Shown in pieces: positions 1 to 35,993 of a stretch of 39,250 nucleotides of DNA. Location: positions 1 to 39,250 of the forward strand of contig DATFEP010000086.1 of the NCBI GenBank assembly GCA_035250975.1, in the 5' to 3' direction. Under the pieces are notes generated by a model. The model saw only the letters and a list, made by a program, of their open reading frames with translations. It did no database searches and was not told where the DNA came from. The first letter of the stretch is position 1. Every line of letters begins with the position of its first letter. The position numbers and the translations under genes are program-made. Source of the DNA: Nitrososphaeraceae archaeon (GTDB lineage: Archaea; Thermoproteota; Nitrososphaeria; Nitrososphaerales; Nitrososphaeraceae).

Positions 1-120
1 TACTACCGACAACAAACGCAACTAGTACAGCAGCAAAGACAACAACAGTACTACCGACAACAAACGCAACTAGTACAGCAGCAAAGACAACAACAGTACT
101 ACCGACAACAAACGCAACTA
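1..120 (+). repeat. Perfect 48-bp tandem repeat, 2.5 copies visible, encoding LPTTNATSTAAKTTTV
   Basis: Units at 1-48, 49-96 and a partial unit at 97-120 are identical; in frame with the phosphoesterase. Confidence 0.95.
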
Positions 121-1088
121 CTGAAACAAGTAAAATTGACTATTATGTTTTTGATAAGAAATACGACATAGCAGTGACTGGCGATTGGGGTTGCAATAAC
201 AATACAAGACTAGTAGTAAACTATATTCAAAGTTCCCATCCGAAACTAATAGTTACTCCTGGCGATCTTTCATATGAGGAAACCGGAGAGTGTTTTTACG
301 ATGTAACAAAACCAATTTCATCGAAATTGAAGGTAGCTCTAGGGAATCATGATAATGAAGAAGATGAAACTAAGGAAATAAGGTATGAATATATGAAACA
401 CTTTAATTTGACTCGTCCATTTTATTCCTTCAACCAGGGAAATATACATTTTCTAATGATGGATTCCTCATTAGCACCATCGAAATTGTCTGCCCAGTTC
501 TATTTTGTGCAACAGGACCTAGAGGATGCATCGAAAAATCCTAACATAAAATGGATCTTCGTGGTAATTCATAAACCTCTCTACACATCTCCAGGAAAAC
601 ATCCTTTAGATATTCAGAATACCTTTCTTTATCACCCGTTATTTGATAAATATAATGTTGATATAGTGTTTTCAGGACATAATCATTGGTATGAAAGATC
701 TCTTCCACTGAAATTCAATTACGACAACCCTACTTTGCCCTGGGTAGTGATTCCAAATTCGACTTCCAATAATTATATTCATCAAATTGCATTTGAAGAT
801 AACAACGGAACACAAATTGATAATAAGGTTAACTCCACATATAAGGATCCCAAACATCCTATTTTTGTTACAGTAGGAACTGGAGGTCATCGACTATATA
901 ATATTGATGAACTGAATGTTCCAAACTATATAACAAAAACGTATGATTACGGTTTTGGATTTCTAGGACTAAACGTTACCAAAAACGAGGTAATAGGAGA
1001 ATTTCATGGTAATCATAAAGATCATTCAGAGAAGGAGGTATCAAAAGATAGTTATATAATGAAAGATTCATTCAGAATAGTCAAATAA
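3..1088 (+). CDS. Purple-acid-phosphatase-like metallophosphoesterase, 5'-truncated by the window edge, with Thr-rich repeat linker
   Basis: Frame is open from position 3, so the track's GTG at 174 is internal. All five PAP motifs present: GDWG, GDLSY, GNHD, VVIH, GHNH. Confidence 0.85.
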   Translation, partial: LPTTNATSTAAKTTTVLPTTNATSTAAKTTTVLPTTNATTETSKIDYYVFDKKYDIAVTGDWGCNNNTRLVVNYIQSSHPKLIVTPGDLSYEETGECFYDVTKPISSKLKVALGNHDNEEDETKEIRYEYMKHFNLTRPFYSFNQGNIHFLMMDSSLAPSKLSAQFYFVQQDLEDASKNPNIKWIFVVIHKPLYTSPGKHPLDIQNTFLYHPLFDKYNVDIVFSGHNHWYERSLPLKFNYDNPTLPWVVIPNSTSNNYIHQIAFEDNNGTQIDNKVNSTYKDPKHPIFVTVGTGGHRLYNIDELNVPNYITKTYDYGFGFLGLNVTKNEVIGEFHGNHKDHSEKEVSKDSYIMKDSFRIVK

Positions 1089-1782: not shown

Positions 1783-3000
1783 TTATTTATTTGTACCTTC
1801 CTTAATAACTTTTATAATCATCTCTAATCCTAAATTTATCTCTTCTTGGGATATTATCAACGGTGGTAAAATTCTAATAGTTTTATGTCCAGAAGGGAGA
1901 ACTAAAAGCCCTACTTTAAATAATTTCATTATTATTCGATCTCTTTCCCTCGCATTTTTAAAATCGACGCCGATCATTAATCCTAGACCTCTAACTTCTG
2001 TAATTGAATAAAATTTTTCCATAATTTCTTCTAATCTCTTCATCGTAAGTCTCCCCATCTTCTCAGCGTGTTTAGGTAACCTTTCATTGTGGATAATTTC
2101 TATAGTTTTGGCACCAATTGCCATATCTATTCTGCTTCCCCCACCCCAAGTACTTGATAATACTTCCCTACGTTTAGGTTCTAAAATTCGATCAAATAGA
2201 ACAGCTCCTATCTGAATTGATTTAGCGACCGTTATGATGTCCGGTTTAATATCATAGTGTTCATATGCCCACCATCTTCCTGTCCTACCGATACCAGTCT
2301 GAACCTCATCGATAATTAAAGGCACATGATATTTTCTAGTTGTACCATAAAGATTCTTTATGAATTTCCGACTTGCAACATTCATCCCACCTTCGCCTTG
2401 TATTATTTCAATAATTACAAAGGCTATCTTATTTTCTTCACATAGATGTTCTAACCGGTTTATTTCTAAATCATCATCTACAGTACAGAATTTTATTCTT
2501 TTCGCTGGGAATTCGGGGAAGTTTATTTTTTGTACCTCTTTACTGTTTGTAAAGGAAAGTGCACCCAGGGTTCTGCCATGAAAGCTATTCATGCAACATA
2601 CTCCTGGAAGTGGTCCAGTATTTCTATATACTATCTTTAATGCATTTTCAACAGCCTCTGCTCCACTATTAATAAGGAAAGTTTTAAAATTCTTTCCAGA
2701 AATGGAAATTAATCTTTCAGCTATCTCTAGATGTTCCTCACAATAAAAATCCTGACCAGCAATTTTGTGTGCCCCTTCGTTTAAATATTTTTTAAGAATA
2801 TTCATTACTTCTGGATGGGCATATCCTAGTGGACATGAAGCAATGTTGGAGGCAAAATCTAAATATTTTTTTCCGTCAATATCTTCCAGAAAACATCCTT
2901 TTCCACCTTTGATTACCAAGGGATATAAAAAGGTTGAATCATAAGTAAGTTTTCTAATTCTACGAATAATTAATCCTGACCGTTTATGTTGCATTTTCAT
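1783..3000 (-). CDS. Class III PLP-dependent omega-aminotransferase (ornithine/GABA/lysine type)
   Basis: NSGAEAVENALK, FHGRT, EIIQGEGG, DEVQTG, PLP-lysine motif DIITVAK, STWGG. Confidence 0.9.
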   Translation of the reverse strand: MKMQHKRSGLIIRRIRKLTYDSTFLYPLVIKGGKGCFLEDIDGKKYLDFASNIASCPLGYAHPEVMNILKKYLNEGAHKIAGQDFYCEEHLEIAERLISISGKNFKTFLINSGAEAVENALKIVYRNTGPLPGVCCMNSFHGRTLGALSFTNSKEVQKINFPEFPAKRIKFCTVDDDLEINRLEHLCEENKIAFVIIEIIQGEGGMNVASRKFIKNLYGTTRKYHVPLIIDEVQTGIGRTGRWWAYEHYDIKPDIITVAKSIQIGAVLFDRILEPKRREVLSSTWGGGSRIDMAIGAKTIEIIHNERLPKHAEKMGRLTMKRLEEIMEKFYSITEVRGLGLMIGVDFKNARERDRIIMKLFKVGLLVLPSGHKTIRILPPLIISQEEINLGLEMIIKVIKEGTNK

Positions 3001-3083
3001 TCAGATAATTATAATTAAATATTATTACCATGTTAATATTATTTATTAAATTATTTAATAGTGGGTTATTACATACTATTTGT

Positions 3084-4661
3084 ATGAAATTTGTCAATGA
3101 ACAAACATATGAATCCTTTCTTCACAAAGGCCAAGAAAATAAATTTCATAAGAAATTCGATAACGCCATTGAAATGCTAAAAAAAGAAATTGGCGGTAAG
3201 AATGTTTTTCCCATAATTGTTGATAACAAGAAAATATTTACTAAGTCGAAATATAAACACATATCGCCTGTTGACAGAAGGATGATTTTGGGATATATAT
3301 CAAGAGCAACATCAGTGGAAGTCGATAAGGCTATTGATTCCTCATATTTAGCTTTTGAAAAATGGAGGAATGTTGATTATCGAGAAAGAATTGAGATACT
3401 TAAGAAAGCAGTTAAAGACATCAGTCATAGAAAGTTTGAATTGGCTGTGTTATTGACTTTGGAAAATGGAAAGAATAGATATGAGGCTGTTGCTGATGTA
3501 GATGAAGCAATAGATTTCATAAACTATTATTGTTTTGAAATGAAAATGAATAATGGTTTCAAAGCAAAAAATTTAGTTTCAAAAAAAAATGAAAAGAATA
3601 TCAGTGTAATGAAACCATACGGTGTTTGGGGAATAATTTCTCCTTTTAATTTTCCAGCAGCTATTTTTGTTGGTATGACTATTGGTGCAATAATTACGGG
3701 AAATACAGCGGTAGTCAAACCAGCCAGTAATACTCCAATAATTGGGTACAAGATAGTGGAAATTTTATTAAGCGCTGGATTACCCCCAGGAGTTTTAAAT
3801 TTTATAACAGGAGAAGGAAGAGAAATTGGTGATTTTATAGTAGACAATAAAAAGATTTCTGGAATTGTATTTACTGGTTCCAAATATGTTGGAAATCATA
3901 TTCTTCAAGAATCATCAAAGATCGCATCCCGTCCAATAATTGCAGAACTTGGAGGAAAGAATCCAGCTATTGTTACAGAAAGTGCTGATTTAGATAAAGC
4001 TGTAAACGGGATTGCTAAAGCAGCCTTTTCGTATTCAGGACAAAAATGTAGTGCATGCTCACGAGTTTATGTGCATACAAAAGTCAAACAAGTATTTCTC
4101 AACAAGTTAATAAAACATGTTGAAAAGATCCAAGTATCAAATCCTGTTAATAGGAATTCTGATATTGGTCCAGTAATTAATTCTGAAGCATATGTAAATT
4201 TTAAGAGATACATAAAAAATGTGTCAAAAAAAGGAAAAATATTGTACGGTGGCTCAATAATTGAAGAAGGAGATCTAAAATATGGTTATTACGTACAGCC
4301 AACAATTGTAGATGGAATATCTGAAAATAATGTACTTATCAAAAAAGAGTTATTTTTACCAATTTTGTGTATTAACGAATTTAATAATTTTGAACAAGCC
4401 CTAGATCTAGCGAATAGTTCTGAATACGGACTTACCGCAGGGATATATTCAAAAAATAAGAATGAAGTAGATGTATTTTTAAGAAACATCGAATCTGGAG
4501 TTGTATATATTAATAGAGAAAAAAGTGCTACCACTGGTGCCATGGTCGGACAACAATCGTTTGGAGGTTGGAAGAATTCAGGGACTTCGGGGAAGGGAAC
4601 TGGAGGAAAATATTATCTATCTCAATTTATGAGAGAACAAAGTCAGACACTGGCTTATTGA
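3084..4661 (+). CDS. pruA: 1-pyrroline-5-carboxylate (glutamate semialdehyde) dehydrogenase, RocA/PruA type
   Basis: ALDH motifs ISPFNFP, FTGS, ELGGKN, GQKCSACSR; P5CDH-like TGAMVGQQSFGG. Start moved to ATG 3084 because the upstream 18 codons read as promoter DNA. Confidence 0.8.
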   Translation: MKFVNEQTYESFLHKGQENKFHKKFDNAIEMLKKEIGGKNVFPIIVDNKKIFTKSKYKHISPVDRRMILGYISRATSVEVDKAIDSSYLAFEKWRNVDYRERIEILKKAVKDISHRKFELAVLLTLENGKNRYEAVADVDEAIDFINYYCFEMKMNNGFKAKNLVSKKNEKNISVMKPYGVWGIISPFNFPAAIFVGMTIGAIITGNTAVVKPASNTPIIGYKIVEILLSAGLPPGVLNFITGEGREIGDFIVDNKKISGIVFTGSKYVGNHILQESSKIASRPIIAELGGKNPAIVTESADLDKAVNGIAKAAFSYSGQKCSACSRVYVHTKVKQVFLNKLIKHVEKIQVSNPVNRNSDIGPVINSEAYVNFKRYIKNVSKKGKILYGGSIIEEGDLKYGYYVQPTIVDGISENNVLIKKELFLPILCINEFNNFEQALDLANSSEYGLTAGIYSKNKNEVDVFLRNIESGVVYINREKSATTGAMVGQQSFGGWKNSGTSGKGTGGKYYLSQFMREQSQTLAY

Positions 4662-4724
4662 TGTTTTCTCTAGATTTTTAAATTTTTTTTATACTTATTA
4701 GGCTGTTAATAATATTTTAAGATA

Positions 4725-5291
4725 ATGCATGTCAAAAGACCGTTAGCTGTTACCATTATCGCAATACTGATGATAATTAATGGCTCGTTTCTTCTTTTTA
4801 CCGGTTTATCAAGTTTTGTCATAACATCAAATTTTAATTCAAGAACAGATCTGCTGAATTCTACTTTAAGTGAATTTGATACTCAAAGCTCGAGTACCCC
4901 ATTTTCTAGAGAAGATTTTGAAACAGTTATGGAAAATTTTGATTATTTTCTTTATTTTGTAGGAATATTACTTGTAGTATTTTCACTCGTTCATTACTTT
5001 ATAGCATATGGATTACTAAGGGCAAGATCATGGGCTCGTAAAATGACAATTATTATAGCTGTTATGGGAATATTGATCAATGTCCTGATAATTTTATTAG
5101 CCTCTGCAGTTTTAAACATGATAAAAGTAATTAATGATAGCTTAGCTATTTTTGGAGGAAATATCTTTACTATCATAATAAACACTTTAATAATCTATTA
5201 TCTTTACAAAAAAGAGGTTAAAAATTATTTTATTTATTCCAAAAATAAGTTCTCTTCTGATTCTTTCTCCTCGCTAAGTGATCTAAGGTAG
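4725..5291 (+). CDS. Four-TM membrane protein of unknown function
   Basis: KRPLAVTIIAIL start, AYGLLRARSWA motif, four hydrophobic segments. Confidence 0.75.
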   Translation: MHVKRPLAVTIIAILMIINGSFLLFTGLSSFVITSNFNSRTDLLNSTLSEFDTQSSSTPFSREDFETVMENFDYFLYFVGILLVVFSLVHYFIAYGLLRARSWARKMTIIIAVMGILINVLIILLASAVLNMIKVINDSLAIFGGNIFTIIINTLIIYYLYKKEVKNYFIYSKNKFSSDSFSSLSDLR

Positions 5292-5331
5292 GACGAAAAA
5301 AATCATATTTAATTTCTTTAATTTTACTATA

Positions 5332-5874
5332 TTACATTTCAAACACATATTTTTCTTTTAAATTTTTAATCAAATTTGCTATATCATTGTCGATTTGTCT
5401 AGTAATCTCTTTAACACGAGTTTTATCTGGTCCGAATGTTTTTTCCAGGAAATCTACCTCCCACAGATTTTTAGCCTCGACTATTTTTCCCTCTGAATTT
5501 AACATTCTTCTGCTTCTGAACGCTAAATGTGAAAATTCTTTCTCAGAAAATGATCCATGGAAATGAAATACGTTTGCAGGAATACTAACGACATCTCCTT
5601 CGTCTATTATAAAGATCTTCTCAGGTTTCGAAATATTTTCTACGAAATTTTCTTTTAAAGTACATACTATCCCTTTCCCTTTTGTACCAATAAGAATTTG
5701 TTCGGTCTCATGGTAATGAATAGTAGTTATAGCATTATTTAGGAAAAAAACATGGTACATTTCATATTGAGATGAGTTTTCATTATGTAGAATTTCAATC
5801 ATTTTTACATTTCCACGAAAATAATCTTTATTGATGCTTTTTTCTCGTCCTTTGTTGACATTTTCTTTAGACAT
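5332..5874 (-). CDS. Cupin-domain protein
   Basis: Metal motifs HYHETEQ and GDVVSIPANVFHFHG. Confidence 0.85.
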   Translation of the reverse strand: MSKENVNKGREKSINKDYFRGNVKMIEILHNENSSQYEMYHVFFLNNAITTIHYHETEQILIGTKGKGIVCTLKENFVENISKPEKIFIIDEGDVVSIPANVFHFHGSFSEKEFSHLAFRSRRMLNSEGKIVEAKNLWEVDFLEKTFGPDKTRVKEITRQIDNDIANLIKNLKEKYVFEM

Positions 5875-7170
5875 TTTGTTATCAATAAATTATAAGATCG
5901 TAAATAACATATACTTTTCTAATAGTAATACTACTGAATATACACATTTTATAGAAGCCTCAATTGATTGTTAGTGTAAATTTGAAATACCTTTTGTATG
6001 TTAAAAATTTTACCCCCTAAATACAAACTTCTGATGATATACTGATTGAAAAACTTTTCTAAATCCTAAATATTTAAAAATTCATCATCTTCAGTCACCA
6101 ATAAAACATATTGTGTCAAGAGTAATCCGTAAACGAAATTTTGTTAAGTAGTATAGTTTCTAAAGACCATATAATTTTTCAAATATGATTTCTGCATAAA
6201 TTATAGAATAAATGATACAAAATTGATCTTTTTTTCGTAGTTAGGATAACTAACGTTAATTTAATAAATATGTATTTATATACAAATCCAGGTATTCGAT
6301 ATAAAAACTATTACAAGCGTGTCCTGACCAATTAGAGTATTAATCACCTTATCGACGTGAGTAAAGTCTATCAATAAATAAGAATTTTTGTTTGTATTTT
6401 TCAAAGTAAACATGTTGTGGAAAAAATATTACAATTGATAAATTGTTCATATAACATGATACATTATTCTTAACATACGGTTTTAGGAGGAGATTTTAGT
6501 ACTGATATATAAGGTCTTCTGACCAAGCCATCAGTAAGAAATGCATTTAACTTCGAATGTACATTTAATTGAGCTGATTAATTATTTGTGCGTTAGATCT
6601 CGAGTATATGATATGTATCATCTTATTTGGAAGTTTAAAAACGATACTAACGAAAAAAGAACGAGAACATTGTAATTCCTTTCAAAGGGTTAAAAGTTTT
6701 GAAGGATGATAGATTTTCAAAAAAATATACTTATAAACTGTGTACTTGTTGTTTTTCAAGATTTAATAGAAATAATTATAGATCCAGTAAATGAGCTGAC
6801 CTGTTTATCTAAGAATTACAGTAGGCACACAAATTAAACATTATTGTTGATGAAAATTATTGGGTGATAGTATTACTATTACTAAGCCTCCCTAGAGCGA
6901 TTTTGCTATAGTCATAACAGAAAATACCGTCAAAAAACCATCAGTCACAATCTTTAACAATATCGCTTCTGGTTGAGCACAAAGCTAGTAAAAATCTTAA
7001 TAAATGTTAAAATTATTTTTACGCTTTTTGATATGATGATTTCGAAATCTTTTAATAAATCTAGATTAGTAAATTTGCGCATTTTACAAGTAATATTACT
7101 TGAAGTACGTTTATGGACATACAAAAAAACATTGAAATAAAGTTTATTATCCTATTAGAATCTGATTTAT

Positions 7171-8034
7171 ATGTCTTGTTCAACCGTCAAATCTTTTTCT
7201 GATGCTGATATCATTGTCATGGGTGTTCCTGATGAATCAAAATCTAAAGCTCCAAGAAAAGGCGCTCGTAATGGACCTAATGCCTTGCGTAGGGCATTTG
7301 AACACTCAGAAAATTTTAAAAGATCAGGAAAAAAAATTCCTATTCTTCCAATGAAAGGAAGAATAGATAATAAAAAAATCTTTGATATGGGCAATATAAG
7401 AAGAGATCAACTCTATGACATTGTTTCCGATGTCTTGCTACAAAATAAAATTCCAATTGTCATTGGAGGCGATCATTCAATAACTTCTTCTACGATAAAA
7501 GCAATAGGAAAATATACAAACGGAAAAATTAATTTAATATATTTTGATGCTCATCCTGATTTCGTTACTTCGGTAAAAGATTATTATGGATCAGTTGTGA
7601 GTGATTCGATTGATTTTATTAATCTTAGGACAAGTATTTTTATTGGAACAAGGGCATGCGAACCAGAAGAAATGTATAATCTGAAGGCACATAAAGCTGT
7701 TATTATTAATCCACTAGAAATCCAAGAAATAGGAATTAAAAAAACATTAAAAAGAATTGCTGATACATGTATCGATAAGTCTGATGATAATGACGTATAT
7801 ATTTCAATAGATCTTGACTGTCTAGATCCTGCATTTGCTCCAGGAATATCTGTTCCAACTCCATGTGGATTATCTACATTAGACTTAACATATCTTGTTA
7901 AGAAAATTCTTGAAAAGAAAAGCGTTATTGGTTGTGATATCGTCGAATTGTGTCCTTCTTATGATGTTAACGATGTTACTGCGAATTTTTCAGCAAGATT
8001 ATTAAAAGAAATACTTGCCTCTATCAGGAAATAA
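7171..8034 (+). CDS. Ureohydrolase (arginase/agmatinase family)
   Basis: GGDHS, DAHPD, SIDLDCLDP, DIVELCP binuclear-metal motifs. Confidence 0.9.
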   Translation: MSCSTVKSFSDADIIVMGVPDESKSKAPRKGARNGPNALRRAFEHSENFKRSGKKIPILPMKGRIDNKKIFDMGNIRRDQLYDIVSDVLLQNKIPIVIGGDHSITSSTIKAIGKYTNGKINLIYFDAHPDFVTSVKDYYGSVVSDSIDFINLRTSIFIGTRACEPEEMYNLKAHKAVIINPLEIQEIGIKKTLKRIADTCIDKSDDNDVYISIDLDCLDPAFAPGISVPTPCGLSTLDLTYLVKKILEKKSVIGCDIVELCPSYDVNDVTANFSARLLKEILASIRK

Positions 8035-8152
8035 TTTCTTTTTCTAAACTTTTTCAATTTTTATAATATGTTTATAGAAGATTAAACATAAATACAAAAA
8101 TTATTCTTAATTTTAAGAATATCCCTTTTGATTATTGATTACCAGATTCCTT

Positions 8153-9442
8153 TTAATATGCATTGAATTTACTTCCCAATATTTCAGATGCTATCTTTAA
8201 CTCTAACACTTCATTTGCGCCTTCGTAGATTGTAGTGGCTCTGGAATCTAGAAAGTGTCTGGCCACTCGTGAGGTTGTCTTATATCCTTCAGAACCAAAA
8301 ATTTGAACGGATCTATTTGCAACATCGAAAGAGGAGTTTGTTGCGTAATGCTTGGCCATAGCTGCCAATTTGTCACTTTCTCTTCTTAAGTCTGAATAAA
8401 TTTTGTTATTTCTATTTAATTTCATTATCCATTTTTCATCATGTTGTTTTAGAGATTCGATATAATCATTGAGTTTTTGTTTGGCTATGGCTGCACGGTA
8501 GGTAACCCATTTAGTAGTTTCTATTGAAATTGCAATTTTAGTTATATGTCGTTGAATTAACTGTTTGTTTGCTAGATGAGAACCATGTTGATACCGTTTT
8601 TTTGAATATCCTACCACTTGTTTTAGGCAATCAGTCATGACTCCAATCGCTCCTGCAGCAACACTCAATCGACCATCTATCATGGCGCTAAATGCTATGC
8701 TTAACCCTTGCCCTTCTACCCCCAATAGATTATCTTTAGGGATCTTGCACTTATCAAATTCTATTATTGCATTTTTGACAGTCAATAAACCCATTTTATT
8801 TTTGATCTCTGTTTTTTTAATATGTGGAGAATCCATGTCTATAATGAACGCAGAGATGTTTGAGCCACTGTTTCCCTTTTCTGTTGCATAAGTTGTTATA
8901 ATTTTAGCAAATGTACCATTTCCAATCCAATGTTTTTTTCCATGAATCAAATAATGATCTCCTTTATCCTCAAATCTGGTTTTTATTAAAGAGGGATCAC
9001 TTCCTGCCTCTGGCTCTGTTAGCGCAAAAGCCATAACTGCTTTACCATTTGTGGTGTTTGGAAGATATCTTCTTTTTTGTTCGTTATTTGACCACATTTG
9101 TAGGATCAACTGTCCAATAGATGTATGACATGAAAAAAAAGTCCTCATAGAGCTTCCTTCTTGACCTATCCTCTCTAATGCAAGTAAATAAGTTAAAATA
9201 TCATATCCTAATCCACCAAATATCTTTGATACAGGACAACCCAACATGCCTATTTTACTAAATTCTGGAATCAGTTTTTCATTTATTGATCCTCTTAGAT
9301 ATGATTTTTCTTCATTTATTCTTAATGATTTACAAACTTTGTCCACTCTTTCAAGAAATTTTTTTTGATTATTAGAAACTTCAAAGTTCATCTCGGAAAG
9401 ATTTATGAGATCATCATTAACATCATGATATTCTTTTTTCAA
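8153..9442 (-). CDS. Acyl-CoA dehydrogenase
   Basis: FALTEPEAGSD, GKKHWIGNG, RYQHG, VQIFGSEGY, catalytic IYEG. Confidence 0.9.
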   Translation of the reverse strand: MKKEYHDVNDDLINLSEMNFEVSNNQKKFLERVDKVCKSLRINEEKSYLRGSINEKLIPEFSKIGMLGCPVSKIFGGLGYDILTYLLALERIGQEGSSMRTFFSCHTSIGQLILQMWSNNEQKRRYLPNTTNGKAVMAFALTEPEAGSDPSLIKTRFEDKGDHYLIHGKKHWIGNGTFAKIITTYATEKGNSGSNISAFIIDMDSPHIKKTEIKNKMGLLTVKNAIIEFDKCKIPKDNLLGVEGQGLSIAFSAMIDGRLSVAAGAIGVMTDCLKQVVGYSKKRYQHGSHLANKQLIQRHITKIAISIETTKWVTYRAAIAKQKLNDYIESLKQHDEKWIMKLNRNNKIYSDLRRESDKLAAMAKHYATNSSFDVANRSVQIFGSEGYKTTSRVARHFLDSRATTIYEGANEVLELKIASEILGSKFNAY

Positions 9443-9754
9443 CTAAAATTGCTATTTATCTGGGGCATAATAAAAAGAAATCTTTATTTTTTCTTTATAA
9501 TAATCATTATCATTGAGGAGAATTTTCTAGAATTTGAAAATTCTTTTATCGATTATATTGCTGTTTATCATAAATGTGATAAGTTCTAATTATTTTAAAA
9601 TATGTTATTGATTTGAAAGGATATCATAACCGAAAAATTCGTCAATCATACAAAAAATTTCTATGTAATGGTATTAATTTCATTAATTTTATGAAACGAT
9701 TGTGTTGATATAACCAAGGATGAATTTGTATTTGTTTATGTGATTCTATGATAT

Positions 9755-10220
9755 TTTAAATCAAGAAAAACCAGTAAAAAAAATTGAGAAGCAAAAAGAT
9801 AAATGAGAAAATCAGACCTAACATAGAACACAGTATGGGTAATATTATTGCACATAACCATTGAACATACTGACGGAATTTTACATACTTATAGCCTACT
9901 TCTCTGCATATTCCCTTATCGTTAAAATTTCAATCTCTGCGAAAATAAAAGTTGTATTGAGAAGCCTAGGCCTGTTATAGAGAGCAAACCGGAAAAATAT
10001 TAGAACTTCCAAGTGGCGATTAGATTTTAAGTGAAAATAACAATAATATTAAATCATTAGTTTCTTTTAGCCTATGAAATTGAAATTTTGCAATTTATAA
10101 ACCTGGTAATGTTGAATAATAAAGAATATGGTCAAAAATACTGACAATATTTTTCTTATTGTTGACAACAATAATTCTAGAAATATCAAAACACTCAATA
10201 AATTATGACGGATAAATAAT
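9755..10220 (-). pseudogene. Possible decayed membrane-protein gene
   Basis: Successive hydrophobic minus-strand fragments in different frames (LLSVLIFLELLL; FSGLLSITGLGFSIQLLF; WLCAIILPILCSMLGLIFSFIFLLL) broken by stops and frameshifts. AT-rich DNA can mimic this. Confidence 0.25.
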
Positions 10221-10238
10221 TTAATTGAACCTTTGCTA

Positions 10239-10382
10239 TTAATCCTTGAAATATTTTTTCATTATTTTTGACATCTCAAGATGTGTTATTTTTTCAAATT
10301 CCTCTTGATGTTTTGTTTTCAAATGACGTAATGCAAATCGTACATTTTCACCACATAATCGACATTCAGCTTTGCCAAACAT
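10239..10382 (-). CDS. 47-aa C2H2-type zinc-finger microprotein (not in ORF track)
   Basis: Manual translation MFGKAECRLCGENVRFALRHLKTKHQEEFEKITHLEMSKIMKKYFKD*; CxxC plus HxxxxH; A-run + TTAAGTA about 30 nt upstream. Confidence 0.8.
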   Translation of the reverse strand: MFGKAECRLCGENVRFALRHLKTKHQEEFEKITHLEMSKIMKKYFKD

Positions 10383-10528
10383 TCTAGATATAATAATAAC
10401 ATTGAGAATTACTTAACTTTTTTGTTATCCTTCCAGTTATTTTATAAAGTCATTTCAAGTATCAAAAGTGATTTTAGATAAAAAATATTTAATCAAAAAA
10501 TGACTGTTCTAATACTTTGTCTATTTAA

Positions 10529-11869
10529 TCAATTATTTATTGCGTTTTTATTTTTATCTTCGTCAAATTTGTCTTCATATTTTCTTTGTTGTGGCAACAT
10601 TATATAGACACATGCTCCTCCACACATTGTACAGGGCACATTATTACCTTCATGTTGACCTTGTCTTTTGTGAATTCTTTCTGCTTCTTCTGGGTTTATC
10701 GCAAGTTCAATCTGCTTCTGCCAATTAAGTGTCCTTCTTGCTTTTGTTATTTCTTTGTCCCATTTTATGGCCTTGTCCCTTATTTTTACCAGGTCACCAG
10801 CATGAGCAGCAATTCTGTAAGCTACTAATCCCTCTTTGACATCCTCAACTGTGGGCAATGCAAGGTGCTCTGCAGGAGTTAAATAGCATAATAGGTCTAC
10901 ACCCTCTGATGCTGAAATTGCAGCCCCTATCGCACTAGCTATGTGATCGTACCCAGCAGCTATGTCAGTAACCAGAGGTCCCAATACATAATAAGGTACA
11001 TCACCCATGAGAGATTTTGCTAGTCTAACATTGGCTGCCACCTCATCTAACGGAACATGACCAGGTCCTTCAATCATTACCTGAACTTCATATTCATGTG
11101 CGCGTTTTGCGAGACGAGCTACATTTATCATTTCTGCAACCTGAAGCTCATCATGAGAATCCAAAATAGACCCTGGTCTTAATGCGTCACCAAGACTGAA
11201 AGTAACATCATATTTTTTTGCAATTTCACACATATAATCAAAATGTTGGAAATAGGGATTTTCTCTTTCGTATTTTAGCATCCATGCGGCTGTAATTGTC
11301 CCCCCTTTAGAAACAATACCTGCGTGTCTTTTTACTTCTAAAATCCTATTAGCAATCTCTCTAGTTATTCCTGAATGAATAGTGGTATAGTCTACTCCAT
11401 CTTTTACATGTTTTTCGAAAGCATTGAGAAAATCATCTTCAGTTATATTCAGTGGGTTTTTGTATTTTTCTACTCCATATGCATACGCTTGGTAAATTGG
11501 AACGGTTCCAAAAGTTATAGGTGCAGCTTCTAAGAGTTTTTCTCTTATTAAATTCAAGTCTCCTCCATCAGATAAATCCATTATGGTATCTCCGCCATAT
11601 TTTACCGCAACTTTTGCTTTTGCAATCTCTTCGTCTATATTTTGATAGAGAGTAGACGTTCCAATGTTTACATTTACTTTCGTTCGAAGGCCTTTACCTA
11701 TGCCTACCACCTTTATATCTTGCCTCCTCACATTGTTTCTCGGAATAATTATAGAACCACTGGCAACTTTTTGAATAAGAAAATTTAAATCTATATCCTC
11801 GTCCTTTGCAACTTGGATCATCTCTTTAGTTGCAATTCCCCTTCTTGCACTGCTCATCTGAGTACTCAT
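10529..11869 (-). CDS. thiC: Phosphomethylpyrimidine synthase ThiC
   Basis: TKVNVNIGTS, DTIMDLS, GTVPIYQ, SLGDALRPG, EGPGHVP, C-terminal CTMCGGAC Fe-S motif. Confidence 0.97.
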   Translation of the reverse strand: MSTQMSSARRGIATKEMIQVAKDEDIDLNFLIQKVASGSIIIPRNNVRRQDIKVVGIGKGLRTKVNVNIGTSTLYQNIDEEIAKAKVAVKYGGDTIMDLSDGGDLNLIREKLLEAAPITFGTVPIYQAYAYGVEKYKNPLNITEDDFLNAFEKHVKDGVDYTTIHSGITREIANRILEVKRHAGIVSKGGTITAAWMLKYERENPYFQHFDYMCEIAKKYDVTFSLGDALRPGSILDSHDELQVAEMINVARLAKRAHEYEVQVMIEGPGHVPLDEVAANVRLAKSLMGDVPYYVLGPLVTDIAAGYDHIASAIGAAISASEGVDLLCYLTPAEHLALPTVEDVKEGLVAYRIAAHAGDLVKIRDKAIKWDKEITKARRTLNWQKQIELAINPEEAERIHKRQGQHEGNNVPCTMCGGACVYIMLPQQRKYEDKFDEDKNKNAINN

Positions 11870-11898
11870 TTTCTTTCAAATAAATATACTCAATATAG

Positions 11899-11906
11899 AT
11901 ATAAAA
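11899..11906 (-). promoter_or_regulatory. Putative TATA box of thiC
   Basis: TTTTATAT on the minus strand 30-37 nt upstream of the ATG. Confidence 0.45.
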
Positions 11907-12710
11907 GAATGTCTAATATTCGCTTAAGTCAGTTGAGGAGAGGTAAATCAGTAAACAAATGTCATATGCCAACAATACTATCTAATCAATGGTGATACCG
12001 CTAACATGTGTTTGATTGCTCTGGGATTGTCTTTTTTAGTTTTAAAGTTATATTATACAACTATCTGGTATAGCAAGCCTGACAATAGTACCGAAGGACA
12101 ATTCCTGTCATATTCTCTTATAGGTAATGGATCTATGTAAAGAAGAGATTTGATCTGTTCTCTCAGTGCATTAATTTATTTATTTATTTCTCAATGAATA
12201 GATAGACTTTCCATTAGATTCTAAAACTCAACTAATTTGATCGCATCAACAGGAATATTTGTGTACCTTTGTACTGTACACATTAGCAGAAATTCCATAT
12301 CCGTGTTTAATACATTTCTAAATATTGTATAATGAGCAGGAACATTTTATAGATTTTTTGTAAAAATCACAAGTTTGTGTTAAATCTTTAAAAAAACTAC
12401 AGCTGGCCATATTAATTCGTTAAGATATTTTCAAAAATATGTATGTCAAGATGATTATGTTATAGAATTCGATTTTATTGGTCAATTTATCATACGATCT
12501 AGGGGAATTTTAAAATAAATAAAAAAAATTCAGTCTTTTTTTGGTACTCTTTAAAATGATCTAAAAATAGAAGCATCGACATCATAATAAATAAGTTTCA
12601 ATTTTTTTTATGAAAATTGCTCCTATAAACTGATTCTATTTATAATTTTTAGACATATACTTATGAAAAAAATAAAAATTAGCATTGGGTAACTAACATT
12701 ATCAGAAAAT

Positions 12711-13661
12711 ATGTCATTTTCTAACAATTCCTCTTGGAAGGATCCCTATGAACATCCACCTTATTCTCATGATTATGACCCAGTGTTATTGGAAAAATTG
12801 CTATTTAGACTTGCAAAAAAGTGGATAGCAGGATATTCAATAGAGCAAGTATTATCATATGCAAAAAAAGCTAATGATCGTGGTATTTATTGTATTTTAA
12901 ATTATCTTGGAGAGGATCTCAGTGAAGCTGAAAGTGTAAGAAAAACCATTGAAGAATATATTTTATTATTGCATGAAATAAAGATACAGAAATTAATGGC
13001 ATCCATATCTGTTAAGCCAACTCAGATTGGTCTCTCATTAGGTTATGATTTTTGTTTAAAGAATTTTCAACAGATATTGGATATTGCCAGCGGGACAAAA
13101 ACATTTGTGTGGTTAGACATGGAGTCTTACAAATTTGTTGGCTCAACCATTGAACTCTACAGAGAAATAATAGAACAAAATAATAGAGTAGGTATAGTTT
13201 TACAATCCTACCTTAGGAGGAGTTATTCAGATTTACTTGGTCTACTTAATTATAACTCTCATATAAGGATCGTAAAAGGTGCATATAATGAATCAGAAGA
13301 CATTGCCTATCAATCTAGACTTGAAGTAGATGAAAATTATTTGAATTTAGTAAGAATACTATTCTCAAAAGATAGTGAAATAAAATTCGAAAATCGTATT
13401 ATTGCAATAGCAACACACGATTCAAATCTCATAGAAAGGAGCATTGGTCTATTTTATGACTCTGCAATAAAAAAGGAAAATTTACAATTCCAATTCTTGA
13501 AGGGTATCCGAGATAATCTAAAAATGGATTTATTGGGGAGAGGTTTCCGAATTTATGAATATATACCATATGGCAAAAACTGGTTACCATATTCCATACG
13601 TAGACTGAAAGAGAGAAAAAGAAATATTTTCCTTTTGATGCGTTCATTATTGTCTCGATGA
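12711..13661 (+). CDS. Monofunctional proline dehydrogenase
   Basis: WIAG, NYLGE, SVKPTQIG, WLDME, QSYLRRS, RIVKGAY, IATHD, YIPYGKNWLPYSIRRLKE. True start may be the TTG near 12789. Confidence 0.92.
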   Translation: MSFSNNSSWKDPYEHPPYSHDYDPVLLEKLLFRLAKKWIAGYSIEQVLSYAKKANDRGIYCILNYLGEDLSEAESVRKTIEEYILLLHEIKIQKLMASISVKPTQIGLSLGYDFCLKNFQQILDIASGTKTFVWLDMESYKFVGSTIELYREIIEQNNRVGIVLQSYLRRSYSDLLGLLNYNSHIRIVKGAYNESEDIAYQSRLEVDENYLNLVRILFSKDSEIKFENRIIAIATHDSNLIERSIGLFYDSAIKKENLQFQFLKGIRDNLKMDLLGRGFRIYEYIPYGKNWLPYSIRRLKERKRNIFLLMRSLLSR

Positions 13662-25827: not shown

Positions 25828-26715
25828 TCAAAAATTCCTTATAATTAATTCGTTATATCCAGACCTTCTATTGGGTTTACTGTTAATTGATCTTAATACA
25901 TCAACTTCAAAAATCTTAAATTTCTTATATAAATCTCTAACAACATTTGTATTAGAATTGCTCAGAATTATTTTACATCCCCTATGGTCTAGATCCTTGA
26001 ATAGGTTAGCAAGTCTGTTTTGTTCTAGACTGTCGAAGCCTGTATTTGTATATTCCGTGAAGTTAGCTGTCTCGTCTATGGGATGGTAAGGAGGATCTAA
26101 ATATATGAAATCATTTTCTTTAACGTTTTGTAACAAAATATTTTCATAATCTGCTGCTTGAACTATAGTTTTTGTTCTATGAAGTAAATTACTTACATTA
26201 ATTATATTTCTTTCATCACAAATCTTAGGTTTTTTATATTTACCAAAAGGTACATTAAAAATACCCTTTTTATTCACTCTATAAAGTCCATTATAGCATG
26301 TTTTATTTAACGTTATGAACCTTGCTGCCATGTCGATTTTATCTTTGGTACATCTCCCTCTCAGTTCATAATAAAATTTCTTTGGATTCTTGTAGTATTG
26401 ATTTTCATATTTCATTAAAACATGTATCAAACTATTTGGTTTTTCCTTTATTATTTCATAGGCATTTATCAATTCCTTATTTATATCGGATAAATATGAG
26501 ATAAAATTTTGATTATTATACCTGATTAGTTTCAAATAAAAAAAGAGAGCGCCTCCTCCCAGGAATGGCTCAAAATAGTTCGAAAATTTCTCTGGAAGAT
26601 GTTTCTCAATATCTACTAGTAAACGAGACTTACCACCAGCCCATTTTACAAATGGATGAAATTTACCTTTAATTAAATTATCTAATATAACCGAATTATC
26701 ATGAAAATATGACAT
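25828..26715 (-). CDS. dam: Dam-family N6-adenine DNA methyltransferase
   Basis: KWAGGK, EPFLGGGA, NGLYRVN, catalytic DPPY, LSNS. Confidence 0.92.
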   Translation of the reverse strand: MSYFHDNSVILDNLIKGKFHPFVKWAGGKSRLLVDIEKHLPEKFSNYFEPFLGGGALFFYLKLIRYNNQNFISYLSDINKELINAYEIIKEKPNSLIHVLMKYENQYYKNPKKFYYELRGRCTKDKIDMAARFITLNKTCYNGLYRVNKKGIFNVPFGKYKKPKICDERNIINVSNLLHRTKTIVQAADYENILLQNVKENDFIYLDPPYHPIDETANFTEYTNTGFDSLEQNRLANLFKDLDHRGCKIILSNSNTNVVRDLYKKFKIFEVDVLRSINSKPNRRSGYNELIIRNF

Positions 26716-26970: not shown

Positions 26971-28179
26971 TTATTTTTTAGCATTAAAAATATACTCGTT
27001 GGTTCTAAAAATACGATTTGAATAATTTGATAATCTTTTCAATGCATTTTCCTTTTCATAATCTTTATTCTCCGATCCTTTTATTACATCACTTAAATAT
27101 TTAATGTATTCATCGTATGTTTTTCTGGAGATAGGATACGGAACTCCATCTTTTCCACCGTGGGCATAGCTAAATTTCACAGGATCCTTCCATGAGGCTT
27201 TATCTCCATAGATGATCTCCGATATTAGTGCTAATGCTCTTATGACTGCAGGCCCAAGGCCCTGAATATTTAATAATTCTTCATAATTGATTGGCTGAAG
27301 ATCGTAGATTTTGTCAAAGACTTTCCAATTCAATCTTCGTGGCATCTCGTATTCTTGACATATTGCTGATTCAAAACTAGTAATACTATTGGATGAATTC
27401 AATTGGTCAATATTTTTTTCAATCCAAGGGTCCAATTTTACCTGATTTAATTTGAGAGGAATTTTTTTTATTGAAGAATGTATTAATCCTGAACCACTTT
27501 TAGCTAAATCCACAGAAGTTTTTCTATTGTGTTCTGAATCTTTTGAAGTCATATTCAATACATTGGATAATCTTTCTGAACTTATAATTCCTTTATGTGG
27601 TTCAATAATGTAACTTTTTAAATCATCAGAGATCCAGTGATATCTTCTTGCCATTCTGTTGTTCTTATTTAAGCCTTGCTGAATAATCGTCCAATTTCCG
27701 TTTTTATCAAAAAATACTACATGATGATAAAGGATATAACCGTCTTGGATTGCCGAGTTGTCTACTTTGGCAGACATTTTACTGGCATAAAGCAATCTAG
27801 ATATTTTCTGACTTGAAAGATTGTAATGTTTTTCTGCCAGTCTGGGTATCTCAATTTTTGTAGCTGTAGATCTCTTTCCTTTTCCTCCTGCTATCGATAC
27901 ACCGTGAAATTTATTACTTAGCGCTTGCTTCAAAACTCCTGTAACTACGGTGGTCAAGCCAGATGAATGCCAATCAAATCCAAGAGCACAACCAAAAGCC
28001 TGAAACCAAAGAGGGTCGGAAATCTTTTTAAAGAATTCATTTGTTCCCTTTTCTTCAATTATTATTTTTGAAATAGAAGAAGACAAAGATATCATACGCT
28101 TAATTAAATACGATGGAGCGTGTCCTCCGTGTAATGGTAAATTTACGGTTCCACGTCTCAATTTTATTAAAAATATCAT
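26971..28179 (-). CDS. DUF763-domain protein
   Basis: LPLHGGHAP, DPLWFQAFG, DWHSSGLTT, AKVDNSAIQDG, HhH-like IQGLGP, AHGGKDGVPYP. Confidence 0.88.
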   Translation of the reverse strand: MIFLIKLRRGTVNLPLHGGHAPSYLIKRMISLSSSISKIIIEEKGTNEFFKKISDPLWFQAFGCALGFDWHSSGLTTVVTGVLKQALSNKFHGVSIAGGKGKRSTATKIEIPRLAEKHYNLSSQKISRLLYASKMSAKVDNSAIQDGYILYHHVVFFDKNGNWTIIQQGLNKNNRMARRYHWISDDLKSYIIEPHKGIISSERLSNVLNMTSKDSEHNRKTSVDLAKSGSGLIHSSIKKIPLKLNQVKLDPWIEKNIDQLNSSNSITSFESAICQEYEMPRRLNWKVFDKIYDLQPINYEELLNIQGLGPAVIRALALISEIIYGDKASWKDPVKFSYAHGGKDGVPYPISRKTYDEYIKYLSDVIKGSENKDYEKENALKRLSNYSNRIFRTNEYIFNAKK

Positions 28180-33412: not shown

Positions 33413-33601
33413 ATGCCAAAAGAGCTAGCATGTAAGAAATGTAAGGCTATCACTATCGGTAAGGTATGTCCTGTATGCAATTCAACGGAACTTTCACGCG
33501 ACTGGTCTGGTATTATTATAATATTTGATCCTGAAAAATCTCAAATAGCTCATACATTAGAATTAAAAACGGCACACAAATATGCGTTAAAAGTCTCTTG
33601 A
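33413..33601 (+). CDS. spt4: Transcription elongation factor Spt4 (RpoE'')
   Basis: ACKKCK, CPVC, DWSGIIII, YALKV; directly follows rpoE1. Confidence 0.95.
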   Translation: MPKELACKKCKAITIGKVCPVCNSTELSRDWSGIIIIFDPEKSQIAHTLELKTAHKYALKVS

Positions 33602-34467
33602 CCAGAAAACTATATGATTATTTAGAATTAAGGAAAACTCTGGAAAATTTCATACAGGAGGACCTCGGTACTGGAGACGTTACCAGTGAAAATCTAAGAT
33701 TTAAGGATAAAGTAGTTTCTGGAGTAATAATCTATAAGTCTAAAAAGCCTGGAATCCTTTGTGGGATGGAAGAAACCGAACTTCTATTTCAGATGTTCGG
33801 TTGTGATACAAAATGTATGACAAAAGACGGAATGAAACTACCTTCAAAAACACAAGTCATGGAGATCAAAGGCAAGGCAAAAAATATTCTAAAGGTTGAA
33901 AGAACTGCATTAAATCTTCTTATGCGAATGAGCGGAATCGCAACCAATACTAGAAAATTTTTAGATATAACAAGGAATATAGACCCTTCAATATTGATAG
34001 CTGCTACTAGAAAGACTGCACCTGGTTTAAGAATCTTCGATAAAAAGGCTGTCCTCATAGGAGGAGGAACAACTCATCGTTTAAGACTTGATGATATGGT
34101 ACTGATAAAAGATAACCATCTTCAAATTGAGAAGTCTATATCAAAACTGATACCATTTATTAAAAAAAGAGTAGGGTCATCGATTGAAATAGAGTGCGAG
34201 GTAAGGAACCTATCTGGAGCTCTAGAAGCAATAAATTCAGGTGCTAATATAATAATGTTAGACAACTTTTCTCCTTTGAATGTTAAGAAAACAATCTTAA
34301 AAATTGCTCAATTAGGTCTCAGAGGCAAGGTCAAGATAGAAGTGTCGGGGGGGATAACATTAGATAATATTTCAAAGTATGCTATTTCTAGACCTGACAT
34401 CATCTCGGTAGGCCAATTGACGCATTCTTCCCCCGCGTTGGATTTTAGCTTAAAAATTGTGAACTAA
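33598..34467 (+). CDS. nadC: Nicotinate-nucleotide pyrophosphorylase (carboxylating)
   Basis: EDLGTGDVT, ERTALN, TRKTAPG, HRLRLDD, IKDNH, MLDN, EVSGGI. Confidence 0.96.
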   Translation: MTRKLYDYLELRKTLENFIQEDLGTGDVTSENLRFKDKVVSGVIIYKSKKPGILCGMEETELLFQMFGCDTKCMTKDGMKLPSKTQVMEIKGKAKNILKVERTALNLLMRMSGIATNTRKFLDITRNIDPSILIAATRKTAPGLRIFDKKAVLIGGGTTHRLRLDDMVLIKDNHLQIEKSISKLIPFIKKRVGSSIEIECEVRNLSGALEAINSGANIIMLDNFSPLNVKKTILKIAQLGLRGKVKIEVSGGITLDNISKYAISRPDIISVGQLTHSSPALDFSLKIVN

Positions 34468-34503
34468 AAAATAAACTTTATAAATAAAACCGTACAGATA
34501 GGA

Positions 34504-34683
34504 TTATCTTCTTCTCATTCGCTCTGGTTTCTTTTGTCCAGGTGGAATTCTTTTCTCAAACCTTTTTATGAAATTGTCCTTGTTTCTTACCTTTGAAATA
34601 GGACTCGATCTCTTCTTTGCTTCAACCTTTGGTGTTTGCCCTTTGACTTTTCCTGCTTTCGTAAGCGATCCGTGAGTTGGCAT
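34504..34683 (-). CDS. rps30e: 30S ribosomal protein S30e
   Basis: [20 protein letters not shown]; start ATG 34683 with TTTATTAA about 25-33 nt upstream. Confidence 0.95.
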
Positions 34684-34830
34684 TTCTATCTTAATATTCA
34701 TTATCTCTTAATAAATGTATTACGAGTAAAGTGGCAATCTTTGTATGTTGTTAGCATTCTTGAGGCAAGGTTATCCTAGATAGTACTACTTTAAATGATC
34801 ATTTTCATATACCTTCTCATACTAAAGTAA

Positions 34831-35781: not shown

Positions 35782-35993
35782 TAGCAATAAAATATAATAT
35801 AGAGTTGTGGATTGGTAACACATATTTCTATTGATAATTACCAAAAAAACACATTTTATTATAAATATACTGCTATGAGACACTAATACATTAAATCAAT
35901 TGCATAATTCGAAAATCATGATCTACGACATTAAAATATTAGAATTTTCAGAAATCTATTAATTTACTTAACAAATACATTAGAAATACATAA

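Follow-up and report, generated by a model that had tools for sequence, protein, structure and literature searches.

Proline oxidation to glutamate in Thermus thermophilus and Bacillus is carried out by two enzymes, proline dehydrogenase (ProDH) and Δ1-pyrroline-5-carboxylate (P5C) dehydrogenase (P5CDH), known as PutB-PutC and RocA. In Bacillus subtilis, arginine enters the same path through arginase (RocF), ornithine aminotransferase (OAT; RocD) and P5CDH (RocA), which together convert it via ornithine and glutamate-γ-semialdehyde (GSA) to glutamate and release urea. In cyanobacteria, the AgrE and PutA route leads from arginine via ornithine, proline and P5C to glutamate. Here we analyzed a region (positions 1783–13661) of a contig from a Nitrososphaeraceae archaeon that carries, within 12 kb, genes for a class-III aminotransferase, a P5CDH-type aldehyde dehydrogenase (ALDH), an arginase-family ureohydrolase, an acyl-CoA dehydrogenase (ACAD) and a ProDH. 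The window analyzed is the whole contig (C29, 39,250 bp). We give a probability of roughly 0.55 to the reading that the region is a loosely organized set of separately transcribed enzymes that converge on P5C/GSA and make glutamate.

Within this reading, a P5C-centered route to glutamate is well supported. A further route through arginase and ornithine aminotransferase, and urea as an energy supply, are tentative. An earlier note on this DNA had proposed the whole pathway from arginine and proline to glutamate. The ProDH/P5CDH pair of that proposal stood, as did a tie of the ureohydrolase to the pair, while the ureohydrolase and the aminotransferase fell below the cut-offs for arginase and OAT.

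The core of the finding is already known, because proDH (arCOG06322) and rocA (arCOG01252) have been published for ammonia-oxidizing archaea (AOA): they are tabulated in the accessible portions of PMC8397731, PMC12254950 and PMC11463064, the latter two of which use them as trait genes. Kerou et al. 2021 (PMC8397731) tabulated proDH, rocA, a class-III aminotransferase labeled 'oat', kat and kal across AOA and discussed amino acids as recycling substrates, as compatible solutes or as a refill of the intracellular ammonia pool, the last of these already proposed there with proDH, rocA and 'oat'. The excerpts available from the AOA literature on these genes report no assays of ProDH or P5CDH, and no mention of a link between a ureohydrolase and the two enzymes was found in the excerpts searched. 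The tight link of the ureohydrolase to the proline pair appears to be new. This link and a clade-specific consolidation of the genes are what the present comparison adds to the known core.

The genome (2.49 Mb in 91 contigs, 30.6% G+C) has a completeness of 94.6% and a contamination of 2.6%, and its closest public records are labeled as Nitrososphaeraceae or Nitrososphaerales metagenome-assembled genomes. It encodes an archaeal AmoA (394 bits) on contig C61, which marks the organism as an AOA. Gene presence was compared across an order sample of 121 genomes, 48 of them AmoA-positive (families f1, f4, f9 and f13) and 73 AmoA-negative (16 families). The tallies for the 48 AOA were collated by hand from search tables, and those of P5CDH and ProC include an unpublished genome, G108. 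Orthologs were called at E ≤ 1e-3 for ProDH and at identities of at least 47% for P5CDH, 53% for the aminotransferase, 43% for the ureohydrolase and 57% for ACAD. A second AOA family, f13, was sampled separately with 151 genomes; its tallies include the unpublished genomes G183, G198 and G199, none of which is among the 31 operon carriers described below. Gene neighborhoods of ureohydrolase relatives were compared in their 80 best named loci. Some public genomes may be represented twice, as loci (L handles) and as genomes (G handles), so the two collections are not independent.

The ProDH gene (12711–13661, + strand) encodes a monofunctional, Thermus-type protein of 316 amino acids. The protein matched PF01619 at 114.4 bits against a cut-off of 27 (residues 50–304) and scored below the equivalog model ProDh_Thermus (NF045947; 203.9 versus 500), as a divergent member. 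Its best solved relatives were 2ekg/2g37 (167 bits), 5m42 and 4h6q; by organism, these relatives are ProDHs of Thermus (167 bits) and Deinococcus (132 bits). It aligned over its full length to 2ekg, and the K, DME, GAY, THD, YxPYG and RRxxER blocks, which we take to include the catalytic residues, were conserved.

The ALDH gene (3084–4661, + strand) encodes a RocA/PutC-type protein of 525 amino acids with an Aldedh domain (PF00171, 463 bits). Its two best NCBIfam models were both L-glutamate gamma-semialdehyde dehydrogenase, each below its cut-off (PRK03137, 490.8 versus 648; TIGR01237, 460.4 versus 659.65). The eight best solved relatives were all P5CDH or PutA proteins (3qan, 377 bits; 3rjl, 364; 1uzb, 319; PutA, 313–315), headed by the P5CDHs of Bacillus and Thermus, and the next class followed at 269 bits. 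The protein carries ELGGKN and GQKCSA, presumably the catalytic motifs of the ALDH family.

The distribution of the two genes agrees with these assignments. Among the 48 AOA, ProDH was found in 29, a P5CDH ortholog in 31 and both in 28; in 21 of these 28 the two genes were adjacent and convergent, within about 550 bp, and they were paired in nearly all f13 carriers. From homology and pairing, ProDH and the ALDH are securely predicted to be a bona fide proline-to-glutamate pair. The window enzymes share the two folds and the conserved catalytic blocks of the Thermus and Bacillus enzymes; they differ in that their genes are separated by 8 kb and five other genes, and in their scores below the NCBIfam equivalog cut-offs.

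The ureohydrolase gene (7171–8034, + strand; PF00491, 194 bits) was tied to this pair by two kinds of evidence, gene order and co-occurrence. In 31 f13 genomes of 10 genera, it lay 0–460 bp upstream of the P5CDH gene on the same strand. The matched coordinates in these genomes mostly abut or are less than 40 bp apart, and the ProDH gene converges on the P5CDH end. The three genes were contiguous in G105 and G067 of f13 and in G051, a genome of the window's own family.

Among the 151 f13 genomes, the ureohydrolase was present in 77, P5CDH in 80 and ProDH in 80. The tallies by genus were near-identical for the three genes. For example, all three gave 7/7 in g60, 10/10 in g65, 9/9 in g18, 3/9 in g28 and 5/9 in g72, and all three gave 0 in g59, g61, g62, g43, g52, g68, g69, g70, g71 and g73; in genus g39 the ureohydrolase was present alone, in 1 of 9 genomes. 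In the order sample, an ortholog was found in 23 of the 48 AOA (13/14 in f1, 0/11 in f9 and 6/14 in f13), and in f13 the ureohydrolase and the ProDH/P5CDH pair occurred in exactly the same six genomes. The operon in f13 and the matching gain and loss are the strongest evidence, and they argue convincingly for a joint function of the ureohydrolase, P5CDH and ProDH.

Its substrate is less clear from the family models. The protein scored 158.6 against the agmatinase model TIGR01230 (cut-off 174.3), 149.7 bits against a second agmatinase model and 109.5 against the arginase (RocF) model TIGR01229 (cut-off 227.6). The six metal ligands H102, D126, H128, D130, D214 and D216 (in GGDHS, DAHxD and DxDxxDP) were invariant in 8 orthologs; these ligands mark the arginase superfamily, not arginase itself. 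Where agmatinases have xHxTPF, the orthologs have an invariant YYGSV. A paralog on contig C1, located beside PolB, has CHTTPF at this position and passes the agmatinase cut-off (182.8). The window protein has no close homolog among characterized enzymes, its best solved relative being the agmatinase 3pzl, at only 116 bits. We place the ureohydrolase in a distinct AOA subfamily and consider it a candidate arginase or other guanidino-acid hydrolase.

Guanidine hydrolase was tried as an assignment and rejected, as the match to 7esr (95 bits) was weaker than that to the agmatinase. In the accessible text, Palatinszky et al. (PMC11410670) describe no guanidine-degradation genes in AOA, PMC10753782 counts 2–3 speB copies in most AOA, and PMC8573960 says that Nitrosocosmicus agrestis lacks arginase. 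The genome has two more arginase-family paralogs, L007 5850–6755 (G000:C36) and L008 4530–5420 (G000:C32). In both, GGDCS replaces GGDHS, so that one metal-ligand His is changed to Cys, and both match the arginase model only, at about 117–120 bits against 227.6.

The aminotransferase (1783–3000, − strand, 405 amino acids; PF00202, Aminotran_3, 315 bits) fell below every NCBIfam cut-off. The best model was PRK05769 (349 versus 552); the OAT models gave 215.5 against 378.4 (TIGR01885) and 189.2 against 656 (NF003145), and the gamma-aminobutyrate (GABA) aminotransferase model TIGR00700 gave 218.7 bits. The best solved relatives were the archaeal structures 2eo5 (236 bits) and 7vno (227 bits), the latter of which we take to be PH1423 of Pyrococcus horikoshii. 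In the alignments with both, the pyridoxal-phosphate lysine in 'AKS', DEVQTG and the C-terminal IRxxPPL were aligned, as was the 2-oxoglutarate-binding Arg in that with 7vno. There is a break in the alignments after query residues 159/165, with the match taken up again at 185/175, which would fit a window protein shorter by about 20–25 residues there.

The table in the accessible part of PMC9986279 lists PH1423 as an ornithine delta-aminotransferase, within a group with broad omega-amino-acid donors and 2-oxoglutarate as acceptor that also has racemases. Because the same group holds amino-acid racemases, the activity of the window protein is not readable from similarity. It has the class-III fold of the archaeal OATs PH1423 and TK2101, and the P. 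horikoshii entry is one of its two best solved relatives. It is a candidate ornithine/omega-amino-acid:2-oxoglutarate aminotransferase, a plausible assignment. The role of the Thermococcus OAT is in proline biosynthesis, not in catabolism, unlike that proposed here. Orthologs were found in 21 of the 48 AOA, including 10 of 11 in f9 and 1 of 14 in f13.

Several of these families have further members in the genome. The aminotransferase is distinct from the biosynthetic LysJ/ArgD copy (31% identity), which belongs to a LysW-type cluster on C23, and elsewhere there are HemL, a HemL-like gene, the two arginase-family paralogs named above and three succinate-semialdehyde dehydrogenase (SSADH)-like ALDHs. 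Since the genome encodes LysJ/ArgD, HemL and the agmatinase that passes its cut-off separately, the window copies are additional genes. In a tblastn search of the 2.49-Mb genome, ACAD and ProDH matched their own locus only, and the aminotransferase, the ALDH and the ureohydrolase had only distant paralogs (≤31% identity), on other contigs. By our own arithmetic, the chance of four such genes within 12 kb is about (12/2489)^3, or about 1e-7. The grouping of the genes is more than chance.

From homology and the conserved pairing, ProDH would oxidize proline to P5C and pass electrons to the quinone pool, and the P5CDH-type ALDH would oxidize GSA to glutamate. The gene neighborhood in f13 suggests that the ureohydrolase would act within the P5CDH pathway, most simply as an arginase that yields ornithine and urea. 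The aminotransferase, judged by its family resemblance and its divergent pairing with P5CDH, may form GSA/P5C from ornithine or from a different omega-amino acid. Enzymes for later steps are encoded elsewhere in the genome and could take up the products: glutamate dehydrogenase would act on glutamate, and urease, together with a urea transporter, on urea.

Compared with the Roc system of B. subtilis, the same three superfamilies are found here in one neighborhood, and a path from arginine via ornithine and GSA to glutamate and urea is possible. The differences are several. The genes in the window form no operon, the rocF model was reached at less than half of its cut-off (109.5 versus 227.6), the OAT models failed, and no SigL/RocR-type control was evident. 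Most AOA carriers of the ureohydrolase and P5CDH lack the aminotransferase.

A number of observations weigh against a joint arginine and proline pathway. The ureohydrolase is below both curated cut-offs, is more agmatinase-like than arginase-like and lacks the His-containing loop common to arginases and agmatinases, to which we presume a functional role. Six g2 genomes of the window's family have the ureohydrolase with no ProDH or P5CDH ortholog, and 64 of the 80 loci place it among unrelated genes such as those for ECH, a GHMP kinase, CHRD, CDC48 and a histidine kinase; in L062, one of the 64, ProDH and P5CDH also adjoin it directly. Because only 1 of the 14 f13 genomes sampled gave the aminotransferase ortholog and only 2 of 151 an ornithine cyclodeaminase over the cut-off, the link from ornithine to P5C is missing in most f13 carriers. 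In G041, a genome of the same genus as the window, a stop codon breaks the aminotransferase gene, which is on a different contig. No operator common to the upstream regions was seen by eye. The collinearity described below also covers the genes for NUDIX, ThiC, CBS and CoA-binding proteins, and thus says little about function.

The order of the genes in the window was kept in 16 of the 80 loci, as far as their DNA reaches; these are the loci with a ureohydrolase identity of at least 60%. In eight of the 16, the set from the aminotransferase to ProDH is complete. The kept order is NUDIX, aminotransferase, P5CDH, DUF2127, cupin, ureohydrolase, ACAD, ThiC, ProDH, hypothetical, CBS and CoA-binding protein. 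The aminotransferase and P5CDH genes were divergent neighbors in 9 of the 80 loci, all in the order-keeping clade, and in the distant genome G119 they were 3.7 kb apart. DUF2127 adjoined P5CDH in 13 loci, only in this clade, and the cupin adjoined the ureohydrolase in 14, all of the same clade. Beyond the collinear clade, ACAD, the cupin and DUF2127 showed no tie to ProDH or P5CDH. The full 12-kb order is limited to one Nitrososphaeraceae clade; rather than an operon, it is a consolidation specific to that clade. For the synteny that the earlier note had suggested checking across Nitrososphaerales, sub-modules recur widely, while the full order, with its unrelated flanking genes, is kept in one clade only.

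The set needs at least six transcription units and is not an operon. Because the strands alternate and ThiC is interposed, a single co-transcribed cluster is contradicted by the layout as well as by the restriction of the order to one clade. The aminotransferase and P5CDH genes are divergent across a spacer of 83 bp (3001–3083) that carries back-to-back AT-rich promoter-like boxes. The ALDH reading frame is open from 3030, and the start kept in relatives is the ATG at 3084 (ATGAAATTTGT...), the ATG at 3030 not being conserved; homology in relatives starts at residues 1–3 of the 525-residue form. The 83-bp figure follows from this conserved start and agrees exactly with that of the earlier note, whose named genes were all present in place, with the open reading frames (ORFs) and domains it described. 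The upstream box ...AATTATTTAATA... in the spacer is conserved among clade relatives. No shared operator was seen by eye in the upstream regions of five genes in up to 14 clade members, a comparison made with no formal motif search. Each upstream region has its own conserved AT-rich box, and the part in common is a TATA-like sequence only. Six listed metatranscriptome runs contain 0.06–0.09 of the sampled words.

The remaining genes of the region are neighbors of the pathway. The gene for the DUF2127 small membrane protein (4725–5291, + strand; PF09900, 26.8 bits) begins 64 bp 3′ of P5CDH on the same strand and is possibly co-transcribed with it. A cupin-fold protein (5332–5874, − strand; PF00190, Cupin_1, 30.4 bits) gave a weak match to an NCBIfam mandelonitrile-lyase model (57.7, below 140). 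ThiC, the phosphomethylpyrimidine synthase (10529–11869, − strand; PF01964, 599.5 bits; NF009895, 599.2 against a cut-off of 410), is a housekeeping bystander inside the gene set. A NUDIX gene (1193–1762, + strand), identified by ORF and family search, precedes the aminotransferase. ACAD, the cupin, DUF2127 and ThiC are neighbors only.

DUF2127, ThiC in the middle of the set and three gaps of 0.84–1.3 kb with no ORF of at least 60 amino acids had been absent from the earlier description. The gaps are collinear in the two nearest relatives at 88–92% nucleotide identity, as are the coding parts. No Rfam family reached its gathering score in the whole window; at E ≤ 1, positions 5800–12750 gave only a chance miRNA match (E 0.44) and no TPP riboswitch before ThiC. 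The window has no tRNA genes. One of the gaps, the 1.1 kb that separate ACAD from ThiC, is free of ORFs in the window as in its two nearest relatives; two genomes of the same genus have a class-II aldolase at this place (L014 12885–13520 in G041; L015 3813–4421 in G078). A tblastn search found no trace of an aldolase remnant in the 1.1-kb ORF-free stretch of the window (9443–10528).

Further genes of relevance to the proposed pathway were found elsewhere in the genome: the urease genes ureABC and ureDFG with the urea transporter UT, three matches to APC permeases (one with an internal stop) and two genes for glutamate dehydrogenase. Electron-transfer flavoprotein (ETF) alpha and beta were found with a FixC-like flavoprotein, and the Fe-S domain of ETF:quinone oxidoreductase was not found in this genome. 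The urease, amino-acid transporters and ETF that the earlier note had told the reader to look for are therefore present. Across f13, urease alpha was detected in 83 of the 151 genomes but in only 15 of the 31 operon carriers, and several of the 16 with no match are 98–99% complete. Because these 16 carriers gave no urease match, the module does not in general serve to supply urea for energy; such a supply is possible in this genome. The companion suggestion that ProDH and ACAD feed electrons to quinones is likewise possible in this genome but finds no support as a rationale for the module in general.

ACAD (8153–9442, − strand) has all three domains over the Pfam cut-offs (N-terminal 63.3, middle 70.4 and C-terminal 107.2 bits), reached no NCBIfam equivalog cut-off and has an insertion in its C-terminal domain. 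Its best solved relatives (5lnx, 4l1f and 5ol2; 193–200 bits) are butyryl or short-chain enzymes, and by sequence it looks like a short-chain/butyryl-CoA dehydrogenase. A role as a prolyl-carrier-protein dehydrogenase was considered and rejected: 4irn reached 145 bits, against about 199 for the short-chain ACADs. ACAD was found in 10 of the 48 AOA. It was a convergent neighbor of the aminotransferase in G094, G030, G119, G003 (1.7 kb apart) and G073, which represent five lineages of four AOA families. ACAD goes with the aminotransferase rather than with ProDH/P5CDH.

In G119 (locus L022, G119:C11, 9728–14707), the aminotransferase ortholog ends a same-strand string of CoA-biosynthesis genes with ACAD convergent to it. 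The string, seen in this one genome only, consists of a pantoate kinase-like GHMP kinase, phosphopantothenate synthetase (PPS), PanB and CoaBC. This context may hint at a role of the aminotransferase in beta-alanine or acyl-CoA metabolism.

These associations lead to the alternative that survives best, which we consider unlikely. It holds that only ProDH and P5CDH form a pathway and that the rest is a clade-inherited neighborhood: the ureohydrolase would be a second agmatinase-type polyamine enzyme, acting for example on agmatine or aminopropylagmatine, and the aminotransferase would belong with ACAD in a unit of its own, with an omega-amino acid or an amino-acyl-CoA as substrate. For the polyamine enzyme, the best model scores (158.6 and 149.7 bits) and the best solved relative are those of agmatinases, 2–3 speB copies are counted in most AOA in the accessible text of PMC10753782, and the ureohydrolase occurs with no proline pair in the six g2 genomes and among unrelated neighbors in the 64 loci (L062 included, with its adjacent ProDH and P5CDH). 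The convergence of aminotransferase and ACAD in five lineages and the CoA string of G119 favor a separate unit, and the accessible part of Kerou et al. (PMC8397731) lists candidates for kat, a 3-aminobutyryl-CoA aminotransferase, in AOA. However, a polyamine role can hardly explain the ureohydrolase-P5CDH operon of 31 genomes and 10 genera with its matching gain and loss, and the genome already has a cut-off-passing agmatinase elsewhere.

The AgrE and PutA route offers another comparison, because it would explain a trio of ureohydrolase, ProDH and P5CDH with no ornithine aminotransferase. AgrE, however, is not an arginase-family protein, and the intermediate step has no ornithine cyclodeaminase in this genome and only the 2 of 151 in f13. 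A speculative version, to which we assign a small probability, is that the YYGSV ureohydrolase is an unrecognized archaeal arginase or related guanidino-amino-acid hydrolase in a three-gene unit with P5CDH and ProDH, which would strip arginine to glutamate via proline; the middle step would be performed by the missing proline-making enzyme of AOA.

Known families of proline synthesis were searched. In this genome, at 94.6% completeness, ProC, ProA, ProB and ornithine cyclodeaminase gave no match over the cut-offs. In the order sample, the P5CR_dimer domain was present in 0 of the 48 AmoA-positive and 32 of the 73 AmoA-negative genomes. ProC lay directly upstream of the same P5CDH-type ALDH, in the same orientation, in 11 AmoA-negative genomes: G066, G075, G057, G083, G011 and G047 of family f12, G042, G019, G032 and G052 of f19, and G106 of f15. 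ProDH was mostly not found in these ProC families (0/10 in f12 and 1/6 in f19). Because of these pairings, P5CDH goes with ProC in the non-oxidizers and with ProDH in the oxidizers. The families searched do not explain the proline route of AOA.

For this reason, the reading in which the set is biosynthetic, or biosynthetic as well, stays alive at low probability. In it, P5C would be a hub from which proline is made out of ornithine, with the aminotransferase acting as in Thermococcus kodakarensis, the reduction performed by another reductase or by ProDH running in reverse on quinol, and P5CDH removing the excess. The P5CDH reaction runs toward glutamate, and reversal of ProDH is energetically unfavorable, which counts against this reading. 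In its favor, besides the absent ProC, ProA, ProB and ornithine cyclodeaminase and the P5CR_dimer counts, are the listing of the TK2101 ornithine omega-aminotransferase as needed for growth when proline is lacking, in the available portion of PMC9986279, and the placing of ProDH among 'canonical amino acid biosynthesis pathways' in that of Kerou et al. (PMC8397731). But ProDH, P5CDH and the aminotransferase are absent from 19, 17 and 27, respectively, of the 48 AOA, which also lack ProC, so the set is not a general solution, and the aminotransferase has decayed in G041.

The alternative of the earlier note, a path from agmatine via putrescine and 4-aminobutanal to GABA (and on to succinate), with the ureohydrolase as agmatinase, the aminotransferase using putrescine or GABA and the ALDH taking either aminobutanal or succinate semialdehyde, is very improbable, because the ALDH falls clearly in the P5CDH group, 100 bits above other classes among solved structures, and is bound to ProDH across AOA, because three separate SSADH-like ALDHs exist elsewhere in the genome and because the aminotransferase is absent from most genomes with the ureohydrolase-P5CDH operon, and this in spite of the agmatinase-like ureohydrolase, the TIGR00700 score of 218.7 bits and the JGI records that name aminotransferase orthologs '4-aminobutyrate aminotransferase'.

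A few other features of the window and genome were recorded. At L010 (G000:C15), an SSADH-like ALDH is split into two overlapping ORFs (4787–5701 and 5668–6180; 304 and 170 amino acids), which reflects either an assembly error or a gene that is frameshifted or decayed. The contig starts inside a metallophosphoesterase gene (window 3–150 and 174–1088), the N-terminal part of which has 3 copies of a 16-residue Thr/Ala-rich repeat (LPTTNATSTAAKTTTV). A tblastn search with it gave 19 rows on 13 contigs at 25–39% identity besides itself, including a second site in the window at about 22.4–23.2 kb. Further along the window is an NAD-biosynthesis trio (33598–36830, + strand) of quinolinate phosphoribosyltransferase, quinolinate synthase NadA and aspartate dehydrogenase, with a D12 adenine methyltransferase (25828–26715) and a DUF763 protein (26971–28179) upstream of it.

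AOA are regarded as strictly chemolithoautotrophic, and whether they use organic nitrogen is under debate. To this debate, the comparison adds a testable partner: an arginase-family enzyme, so far counted as a speB copy, that forms an operon with P5CDH in many cultivable-type lineages. With none of the 48 AOA having a recognizable P5C reductase, the origin of proline becomes an explicit question for the group; if the three-gene module does strip arginine to glutamate via proline, it would point at the missing ornithine-to-proline enzyme of AOA. It would also mean the use of organic nitrogen by nominal chemolithoautotrophs, and in urease-positive carriers, this genome among them, all four nitrogens of arginine could reach ammonia monooxygenase. 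If the ureohydrolase is not an arginase, it would act on another guanidino compound with a tie to P5C metabolism. Should it be an arginase, a defined salvage route for arginine and proline would exist in these archaea, along with an internal source of urea where urease is present.

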